This document shows positions 45,442 to 46,843 of a stretch of DNA of 64,000 bases, one piece after another; within the stretch, counting starts at the first letter, position 1, and every line of letters starts with the position of its first letter. The notes beneath the pieces are model-generated. The model was not told the DNA's origin. It ran no database searches and saw only the letters and a program-made list of their open reading frames with translations. The position numbers and the translations under genes were made by a program. Source of the stretch: Octopus sinensis (lineage: Eukaryota); assembly GCF_006345805.1 (NCBI RefSeq), contig NC_042997.1, positions 12,648,001 to 12,712,000 of the forward strand. Direction: 5' to 3'.

Positions 45442-45739
45442 ATATATATATATATAATTTCAACAAGTGAGGGTAAAATTAATTAATTAATCAATTTCAC
45501 CAAGTATTCAGTATGCAAAGGGACCATTTTAGGCGAATTCAAATTATTACATTATATAAAAGGGCTTAGTAAAATAAATTACTTTGCCGCATACTGAACT
45601 CATTAGAAATAGCAGCTAAAAAACTTTTTTAAAACTATTTCTAATACTTAAAGAAAACCTCTCTCATATAGTGCTTGCTCAATTCAACTCACGCAAATAT
45701 GGGGGTAGAGACATTAAAAAATCAAGTGCAAAGGTTATT

Positions 45740-45791
45740 TGAGAACGTACGTTTCAAGATTAGTCAACACGACATTTCTATCATCAGCTCA
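45740..45791 (-). ncRNA. Type I hammerhead ribozyme
   Basis: Reverse complement of 46490-46541. Confidence 0.75.
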
Positions 45792-46489
45792 GAACTCCCT
45801 GGTTTGGATTTGAAAACACTGAAAATGGGAGCATACCCTTTCGGCTTCCTCTCGCTTCTGAAGATCTGCTCCCAACTAACAGTGCCAACAAACCCAAAAA
45901 TGCAAGCGAAGAATTTCTGCTCTCCCCTTTCCACCAGCGTGGGTTAAAATCAGTAAACACTATGCTTTTTTCGGTAAAGTCCGCGGCATTATATAGAGAG
46001 AGATGAATTATAATTTCAACAATTGAGGGTAAAATTAATTAATTAATCAATTTCACCAAGTATTCAGTATGCAAAGGGACCATTTAAAAAAGTTTAAAAA
46101 AAGTTTTTTAGCTGCTATTTCTAATGAGTTCAGTATGCGGCAAAGTAATTTATTTTACTAAGCCCTTTTATATAATGTAATAATTTGAATTCGCCTTAAA
46201 TGGTCCCTTTGCATACTGAATACTTGGTGAAATTGATTAATTAATTAATTTTACCCTCAATTGTTGAAATTATAATTCATCTCTCTCTATATAATGCCGC
46301 GGACTTTACCGAAAAAAGCATAGTGTTTACTGATTTTAACCCACGCTGGTGGAAAGGGGAGAGCAGAAATTCTTCGCTTGCATTTTTGGGTTTGTTGGCA
46401 CTTAGTTGGGAGCAGATCTTCAGAAGCGAGAGGAAGCCGAAAGGGTATGCTCCCATTTTCAGTGTTTTCAAATCCAAACCAGGGAGTTC

Positions 46490-46541
46490 TGAGCTGATGA
46501 TAGAAATGTCGTGTTGACTAATCTTGAAACGTACGTTCTCA
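46490..46541 (+). ncRNA. Type I hammerhead ribozyme
   Basis: tgag-CTGATGA-tagaaatgtcgtgttgactaatctt-GAAAC-gtac-GTT^-ctca. Palindrome aacgtacgtt; weak stem II with a U-U first pair. Confidence 0.75.
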
Positions 46542-46843
46542 AATAACCTTTGCACTTGATTTTTTAATGTCTCTACCCCCATATTTGCGTGAGTTGAATT
46601 GAGCAAGCACTATATGAGAGAGGTTTTCTTTAAGTATTAGAAATAGTTTTAAAAAAGTTTTTTAGCTGCTATTTCTAATGAGTTCAGTATGCGGCAAAGT
46701 AATTTATTTTACTAAGCCCTTTTATATAATATATATATATATATATATATACCTGTATATATGTATGTACATATGTATGCATATATACATCCTGTATGTG
46801 CTGTCCATAATATATTATATACACACACACACCACATATATAT

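Follow-up and report, generated by a model that had tools for sequence, protein, structure and literature searches.

Two head-to-head copies of a hammerhead-like unit in the Octopus sinensis genome resemble a retrozyme with a PLE-like integration footprint

How do two inverted copies of one repeat unit, each somewhat longer than the unit and each beginning at a different point of it, come to lie head-to-head in a genome, and from what kind of RNA template were they copied? The question is raised by a locus in a 64,000-nt stretch of Octopus sinensis DNA (contig NC_042997.1, positions 12,648,001 to 12,712,000 of the forward strand), which is referred to below as the window and from whose first base all coordinates are counted. 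The original prediction, made from the sequence itself, described a 555-bp hammerhead monomer arranged as two circularly permuted, inverted partial tandems and proposed that a circular or multimeric RNA had been copied twice. We consider the locus to be a non-autonomous PLE-type element primed at both ends of its DNA target from two recurring sites (probability roughly 0.85). The full version of this reading, in which both DNA ends were primed on one uncut linear multimeric RNA of at least 2.3 units, is in our view an even bet; the weights attached to the explanations are judgements, not computed posteriors.

Self-comparison of the window revealed two divergent inverted arms of one ~555-nt unit, ~99% alike and ~1.15 units long apiece. 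The two inverted, more-than-unit partial tandems were thus borne out; as to the unit itself, its inverted arrangement stood, while its period turned out to be 556 nt in the left arm and 554 nt in the right arm, and an unpaired spacer of 108 nt lies between the inner arms. The components of the locus are as follows, with unit position 1 defined as the first base 3' of the predicted ribozyme cut (46538).

45355-45456, no strand: left (TA)n tract, the inferred target, whose final TATA forms a 4-nt microhomology with the template
45453-46087, minus strand: left arm of 635 nt (1.14 units) with its RNA sense on the minus strand, running from unit position 213 to position 291 of the next unit
45740-45791, minus strand: left copy of the type I hammerhead-like motif, which is predicted to be cut between 45744 and 45743
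46009-46085, minus strand: terminal redundancy of the left arm, a second copy of 45453-45529 with 99% identity
46083-46103, no strand: inversion junction, with the TTTAA microhomology at 46083-46087 and then a 10-nt duplication
46088-46195, plus strand: unpaired spacer between the inner inverted arms
46093-46729, plus strand: right arm, 637 templated nt (1.15 units), RNA-sense on the plus strand, running from unit position 110 to position 192 of the next unit
46490-46541, plus strand: type I hammerhead-like motif, right copy, predicted cut 46537/46538
46636-46679, plus strand: long hairpin (unit 99-142), inside whose upstream copy the inner end of the right arm lies
46723-46974, no strand: right (TA)n or TA-rich tract, the inferred target

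The left arm runs past one unit by 79 nt and the right arm by 83 nt; the terminal redundancy of the latter (46087-46179 against 46641-46733) has 97% identity, and the arm measures 647 nt if the junction duplication is counted from 46083. In both arms the hammerhead-sense strand points outward from the centre, giving the head-to-head arrangement. A join near 46086 with a short duplication had been foreseen and was found: TTTAA is common to both templates and 46083-46092 is duplicated as 46093-46103, a scar that we read as two cDNA 3' ends joined together. Away from this junction the arms differ by two substitutions (45467 and 45530), both private to the outermost left copy, and by one 2-nt indel near 45880. 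A target-site duplication was not found at the locus, which has (TA)n on both sides, and the 64-kb window holds no further full copy of the unit. A partial copy of a SINE-like family (~45090-45360) lies directly to the left of the insertion. RNA folding prediction for the whole locus gave helices of 327 and 207 bp (534 predicted bp in all), and on paper the arms could form dsRNA, provided that the locus is transcribed, which agrees with the dsRNA potential ascribed to it originally.

Each arm contains one hammerhead-like motif, and the type I core (CUGANGA, GAAA, NUH and helix I) is present in the unit. The right copy has a 4-bp helix I, the CUGAUGA core at 46494-46500, GAAA at 46526-46529, a GUU triplet and a stem III that is a perfect palindrome, ACGUACGU (46529-46536); its helix II is weak, with U.U at the base and 3+3 bp, so that U follows A9 and U precedes G12. 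The coordinates of the left motif were mirrored from the right copy through the inverted repeat. Rfam returned neither a hammerhead nor any other credible family for the unit at the gathering score or at E<=10, and the more regular motif in a 476-nt unit described below likewise escaped it; miRNA matches in Rfam were rejected as fold-back or TA noise. The predicted hammerhead identity accordingly has a counterpart in the motif anatomy of both arms and none in Rfam, and the name hammerhead-like is used here in that anatomical sense. A descriptor that was drafted after the motif had been seen, and that called for stem I of at least 4 bp, the core, GAAA and UH with helix II pairing left out, found a match in 93 of 20,000 dinucleotide-shuffled units; requiring a palindromic stem III as well lowered this to 11 of 20,000. 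GUU is a poor hammerhead cleavage triplet. In the folding predictions the catalytic-like fold of the monomer reaches -2.1 kcal/mol against an MFE of -6.6 kcal/mol, and the stem III self-dimer reaches -9.8 kcal/mol; these values suggest that self-cleavage would proceed as a dimer only, if at all, and the ribozyme is probably slow or dimer-dependent.

The unit as a whole is more structured than its shuffles on both strands (z -5.4 for the sense and -4.7 for the antisense strand, 30 shuffles each). A GC-rich branched RNA element with a 7-8 bp closing stem (46408-46454, plus strand, mirrored in the left arm) sits ~40 nt upstream of the ribozyme core. The unit appears to be non-coding: none of the four ORFs scanned had a Pfam match, the Atlas score of the 110-aa antisense ORF was at shuffle level, and comparison of the 90-aa sense ORF with the longer proteins of the protein collection gave no homolog, which is weak evidence.

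A key question is whether the outer ends of the arms mark arbitrary points of the unit or defined sites. A scan combined with self-comparison identified four informative companion insertions in the 64-kb window, all in (TA)n.

27604-29740: 476-nt hammerhead unit, an inverted arm of 1.004 units head-to-head with 3.5 direct units
52628-53232: 481-nt unit, a single arm of 1.26 units with the variant core CCGAUGA
58964-59176, no strand: short two-arm relative of the 555-nt unit (E 1e-7 and 3e-6)
24114-24253, minus strand: short single-arm relative (E 9e-8 to unit 83-183), ending at an R-type site (see below)

The 476-nt unit has no significant overall similarity to the 555-nt unit. Its regular type I hammerhead motif is present in five copies; the arms measure 480 and 1660 nt and are separated by a gap of ~123 nt, being not adjacent, and homopolymer noise in the array suggests an imperfect consensus. 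The 481-nt unit combines a very long helix II with a palindromic stem III and a GUC site, and the 5' end of its arm falls ~10 nt beyond the point at which the upstream unit is predicted to be cut, a placement compatible with a linear template cleaved by its ribozyme. A small inverted and partial-tandem element in TA-rich sequence (17525-17806), with a minimal hammerhead-like motif at 17708-17749 flanked by two 42-nt repeats, was left out of all end counts, its ends not being resolved.

Alignment of the arm ends revealed two types of start site, represented in the 555-nt-unit locus as follows.

45453-45501, minus strand: L-type start site, a 13-bp hairpin (45472-45501) and then a ~20-nt motif ending in a TATA patch
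46693-46729, plus strand: R-type start site, a small hairpin closed by GGC/GCC and then a TATATA patch (6-nt microhomology with the target)

The two sites are 99 nt apart in the 555-nt unit and ~125 nt apart in the 476-nt unit. Matching sites terminate the arms of four other insertions, namely the two short relatives and the two dissimilar hammerhead units. The ends comprise four of the L-type and four of the R-type, the latter consisting of a hairpin and then a short CCC-pyrimidine-TATA motif; every two-arm locus (3/3) has one of each, and an L-type end also occurs in one single-arm insertion (52628, the 481-nt unit). At 58964-59176 the R-type site terminates the 81-nt minus arm, whereas the 132-nt plus arm extends from the R-type site to its end at the L-type site. 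All eight tabulated arm 3' ends, from five loci, abut TA runs, compared with 5.6% of window positions. The idea that the 481-nt unit is without an R-type site and for that reason has a single arm was dropped, since a similar motif is found at its position 213.

The similarity of ends within a type was assessed on the upstream sequence against 6000 random position pairs, the anchors of the start sites having been picked after the sequences were viewed. No random pair scored as well as the L-type end L1 against the end of the 481-nt arm (A3), 5 were as good as L1 against the L-type end of the 476-nt unit (L2), 114 as good as L2 against A3, and 94 as good as the two R-type ends R1 and R2 against each other. 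Across types (L against R) 1364-5314 random pairs were as good, which means no match. The test for a hairpin before the start is modest per site, with 4/60 to 24/70 background positions as good. A profile built from the L-type ends failed to recover its own member at 59100-59172, whose L-type assignment comes from blastn and pairwise alignment. TA patches are rare in the unit (a 4-nt alternating patch starts at 10/554 positions and a 6-nt patch at 2/554), and both outer ends of the 555-nt-unit locus lie at TA patches that match the target; L2, one of the five long-arm ends examined for microhomology, has 2 nt of it at most.

These data suggest that the permutations noted at the outset are two defined starts 99 nt apart and not arbitrary entry points, and the recurrence of ends at two sites led us to reject random entry on a circle. 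What stands of the predicted circular or multimeric template is an RNA copied across an intact ribozyme junction; arbitrary entry gave way to the two recurring starts.

Another important question is how two such starts could produce the inverted arms. In the full version of our reading, a tandem donor array elsewhere would be transcribed into RNA of at least 2.33 units, the weak ribozymes of which leave it uncut, a PLE GIY-YIG endonuclease would cut both strands in (TA)n, and a Penelope-type reverse transcriptase supplied in trans would prime from both ends of the cut. One DNA 3' end would pair with the TATA patch of the L-type site (unit 291) and the other with the TATATA patch at unit 192, the R-type site of the next unit upstream, each pairing patch coming after a hairpin; here the geometry is that of the arms themselves and the chemistry is putative. 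The left cDNA would then extend for 635 nt and stop 20 nt before the second primer, the right cDNA would extend for 637 nt and stop within the long hairpin, and the cDNA ends would join via TTTAA with a 10-nt slippage duplication, of which the sequence scar is visible.

When laid out on a linear multimer, the right arm, a 20-nt gap and the left arm together occupy 1292 nt, or 2.33 units. The gap is counted modulo one unit, and the left arm stops short of the start of the right arm, as in twin priming. Since the arms are adjacent and non-overlapping on such a multimer, one RNA copied once in two stretches suffices, and the template need not have been copied twice as had been proposed. The short relative at 58964-59176, whose L-type arm starts from the R-type site and overlaps by ~10 nt, has the same geometry without the extra unit. 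Adjacency of this kind has a chance of 0.074 per locus under uniform stops and holds in two of the three two-arm loci. At the 476-nt locus, all three informative columns place the inverted arm with the outer units and not with its physical neighbours; this grouping favours one RNA, because the outer units are the neighbours of the inverted arm on such an RNA, but it could also come from later duplication or consensus error.

Several observations speak against one linear multimer. The 476-nt inverted arm of 1.004 units is the signature of one turn of a circle, and the ~123-nt gap at that locus leaves its arms apart. Five of the eight arms reach at least one unit, four of them at 1.00-1.26 units, as a circle predicts, although the initial detection of arms through their ribozyme is partly responsible for this excess. 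The adjacency could reflect structure- or protein-defined stops on separate RNAs, and the variants may be consensus errors or post-insertion changes. The starts of the Anolis PLE protein are reported as not homologous to the target (PMC11167929), and PLE tails are given as 30-40 nt (PMC8557442), compared with 99 nt here. No tandem donor array for the 555-nt unit was found in the 64-kb window. Finally, the arm lengths are near-equal here (635/637) and unequal at the other two-arm loci (81/132 and 480/1660), and the near-equality has no explanation unless the two syntheses ran together. Two arguments that had been considered were abandoned: that all arms exceed one unit, three short arms having been found, and that the private variants of the left outer copy prove a multimer, their placement being equally uninformative under a long multimer or a circle.

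The strongest alternative, which we regard as a serious rival although the less likely one, is a circular monomer template: a multimer is cut by its ribozymes, monomers are ligated into one or two 555-nt circles, and each target end primes at one start site and copies one turn plus ~80 nt with strand displacement. Both arms of the 555-nt-unit locus overshoot, by the 79 and 83 nt given above, and the 476-nt companion arm closes almost exactly one unit. Animal retrozymes, moreover, are reported to form abundant circles despite weak ribozymes, one of which has U.U at the base of helix II (PMC7229834). The unit also folds well as a circle (the sense z value above), but folding does not single out a circle, because the antisense strand folds almost as well. 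Apart from requiring strand displacement, a circle leaves both the 20-nt adjacency and the geometry of the short relative to coincidence or pause sites. The overshoot varies across the loci (2, 79, 83 and 124 nt, and ~2.5 turns), so that a constant overshoot was rejected, and the variants shared among copies of the 476-nt unit are not star-like unless a later duplication is assumed.

In a bolder form of the circular template, in our judgement improbable, one 555-nt circular RNA, bound by a dimeric RT related to telomerase, was the template for both DNA ends, with the two active sites in lockstep. The arms would then measure 635 and 637 nt because the two active sites chase each other round the circle, and the hairpin with its TA start site would act as a telomerase-style alignment template. 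If this were true, the locus would be a direct genomic record of an animal circRNA retrotransposed by rolling-circle copying from two primers.

A further model, to which we give little probability, is dual priming on two linear transcripts of one donor, partial-tandem or dimeric, with one copy made from each start site and 5'-truncated at structure-defined stops. Both substitutions do lie in the sole segment that would derive only from the downstream unit of a dimer, and dual priming is a described alternative for the same architecture (PMC2837659). The 2-nt indel, however, falls in a part that both arms would have copied from one and the same unit, and neither the equal arm lengths nor the presence of one site of each type at 3/3 two-arm loci is explained.

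Self-priming or snap-back, in which the cDNA of the right arm, or else an antisense RNA, bent back at TTTAA with a loop of 108 nt and served as its own template, is very improbable. This model has been proposed for PLE head-to-head repeats (PMC3846280) and agrees with the junction microhomology and the hairpin-rich sequence, but the left arm runs 99 nt beyond the outer end of the right arm, which calls for an extra template switch. Moreover, the outer end of the left arm is a start and not a stop, because arms of three other loci end at the same site.

A chimeric-read or assembly fold-back artefact, feared from the beginning and suggested by near-identical inverted arms and the noisy 476-nt array, has a negligible probability because comparison of the 3-kb flanks gave no mirror symmetry, with matches of 43 and 28 nt only, and because the 108-nt offset of the inner arms is not expected of a simple read fold-back. 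In addition, both ends lie at biologically recurring sites and the geometry is repeated at two diverged loci. The two-arm insertion is real and young.

The proteins that could have moved such an element have one candidate source in the window.

62921-63866, minus strand: 5'-truncated PLE-like ORF split over two frames; it begins at a (TA)n tract and encodes a CX4CXXC motif as well as a GIY-YIG-like domain

Its Pfam GIY-YIG match (E 0.0056) is below the cut-off, and it has an Atlas score of 0.97 to clusters with 13-18% GIY-YIG; judging from the motif as described in PMC8557442, it is probably Neptune-type. The fragment is a possible driver: it indicates that such machinery is present in the genome, not that this family was the mover. 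No DNA-level or tblastn link was found between it and the 555-nt unit. Thus, of the pattern that was originally named as contrary evidence, fixed ends attached to a coding PLE, the recurrence of 3' ends at two sites was found and the link to a coding PLE was not.

Other repeats were also recorded in the window. A weak reverse-transcriptase match at 8837-9178 on the minus strand (Pfam RVT_1, E 0.0042) is probably a decayed LINE. An abundant SINE-like family of ~400 nt, many pairs of which are 80-93% alike, includes copies at 3439-3822, 4067-4537, 13861-14837, 30349-30732, 40080-40492, 51489-51885 and 57889-58301, and presumably resembles octopus SINEs. A second dispersed family, whose members contain ~101-nt tandem units and frequently adjoin TA tracts, is represented by 777-1299, 1467-1849, 18008-18346, 43058-43455 and 57210-57631. 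An exact 124-nt tandem duplication (48448-48693, 100% identity) arose either very recently or in the assembly.

Two questions are described as open in PMC7229834, PMC8557442 and the 2026 preprint (bioRxiv 10.64898/2026.07.22.740005): the way in which animal retrozymes move, and the reason for the tandem and inverted structures of PLE insertions. If our reading is true, a retrozyme-like RNA bears a PLE integration footprint, which links passenger to driver by mechanism and not by co-occurrence, and the RNA template of such animal elements becomes testable. It also names a compact cis element, a hairpin with a TA patch, two per unit and common to otherwise dissimilar families. With at least five such insertions in 64 kb, one genome may suffice to decide between circle and multimer by counting. 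Each two-arm copy is, in addition, a ready long hairpin that could seed silencing if transcribed.

The element resembles a non-LTR retrozyme that would be moved by PLE proteins and would leave a PLE-like integration footprint. As in non-LTR retrozymes, the unit is without a recognisable gene and has a type I hammerhead-like motif (PMC7229834; bioRxiv 10.64898/2026.07.22.740005); its 555 nt fall inside the 51-972 bp reported for retrozyme families; and it is structured, as is the RNA of metazoan retrozymes, for which PLE proteins have been proposed as movers. The U.U at the base of helix II recurs in axolotl HHR_Amex2, a weakly active retrozyme, and the palindromic helix III in axolotl HHR_Amex1; axolotl retrozymes with weak ribozymes accumulate multimers (PMC7229834). 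In contrast to retrozymes, the locus consists of two inverted 1.15-unit arms and not of a direct array with at least two ribozymes, it has a GUU triplet, and its two recurring start sites are shared across families. The preprint regards as active those elements with at least two consecutive direct units carrying complete ribozymes. With one motif per arm, the 555-nt locus is probably a derived copy and not an active retrozyme array; the 476-nt locus, with at least two consecutive ribozymes, makes a better candidate for an active one. The inverted anatomy was not found in these retrozyme accounts, the available text of PMC7229834 containing the word "inverted" 0 times and that of the preprint once.

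The minimal hammerhead of PLEs (PMC4209133) is matched in its palindromic 15.2-16.2/loop 3 and its short helix I (4-5 bp), but not in its G10.1-C11.1 pair and 7-8 bp helix II. PLE-type motifs with a palindromic stem III and a short helix I work as dimers (PMC4209133), and more-than-unit copying from a circle has already been proposed for PLEs and retrozymes (PMC4209133, PMC7229834). The closest architecture is that of EN+ PLEs (Penelope/Poseidon, Neptune and Naiad), in which a partial tandem is accompanied by an adjacent head-to-head inverted copy (PMC8557442, PMC3846280). There, as here, the 3' extension of one arm equals the interval between two starts, the starts lie downstream of the ribozyme, and the bias towards (TA)n, seen here at all tabulated ends, hides target duplications. 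The differences are that the 555-nt unit has no RT or endonuclease ORF, that the extension is 99 nt (~125 nt in the 476-nt unit) and not 30-40, that the ribozyme lies mid-arm and not in the duplicated (pLTR-like) part, and that the inverted copy itself exceeds unit length.

Purified Anolis PLE protein, predicted to be dimeric, cleaves both strands and extends them; its synthesis begins internally at two sites, the interval between which is the "tail", and unprocessed RNA is its dominant substrate. Its starts are not homologous to the cut DNA, whereas those described here appear to pair with the target (PMC11167929). L1 twin or dual priming (PMC2912911, PMC2837659) likewise yields opposed cDNAs from both target ends with internal microhomology priming, and leaves microhomology at the junction and a short deletion between the arms (here 5 nt and the 20-nt gap, respectively). 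The locus differs from L1 in the absence of a poly(A) tail, in that both primings are internal at recurring sites, in its tandem template and in the lack of a visible target duplication. In the literature searched, which largely excludes subscription papers and with them key Penelope work, we found no description of twin priming for pLTR elements or of two start sites shared across retrozyme families. The architecture itself is a described PLE trait, and the new aspect is the longer two-start platform shared between families.
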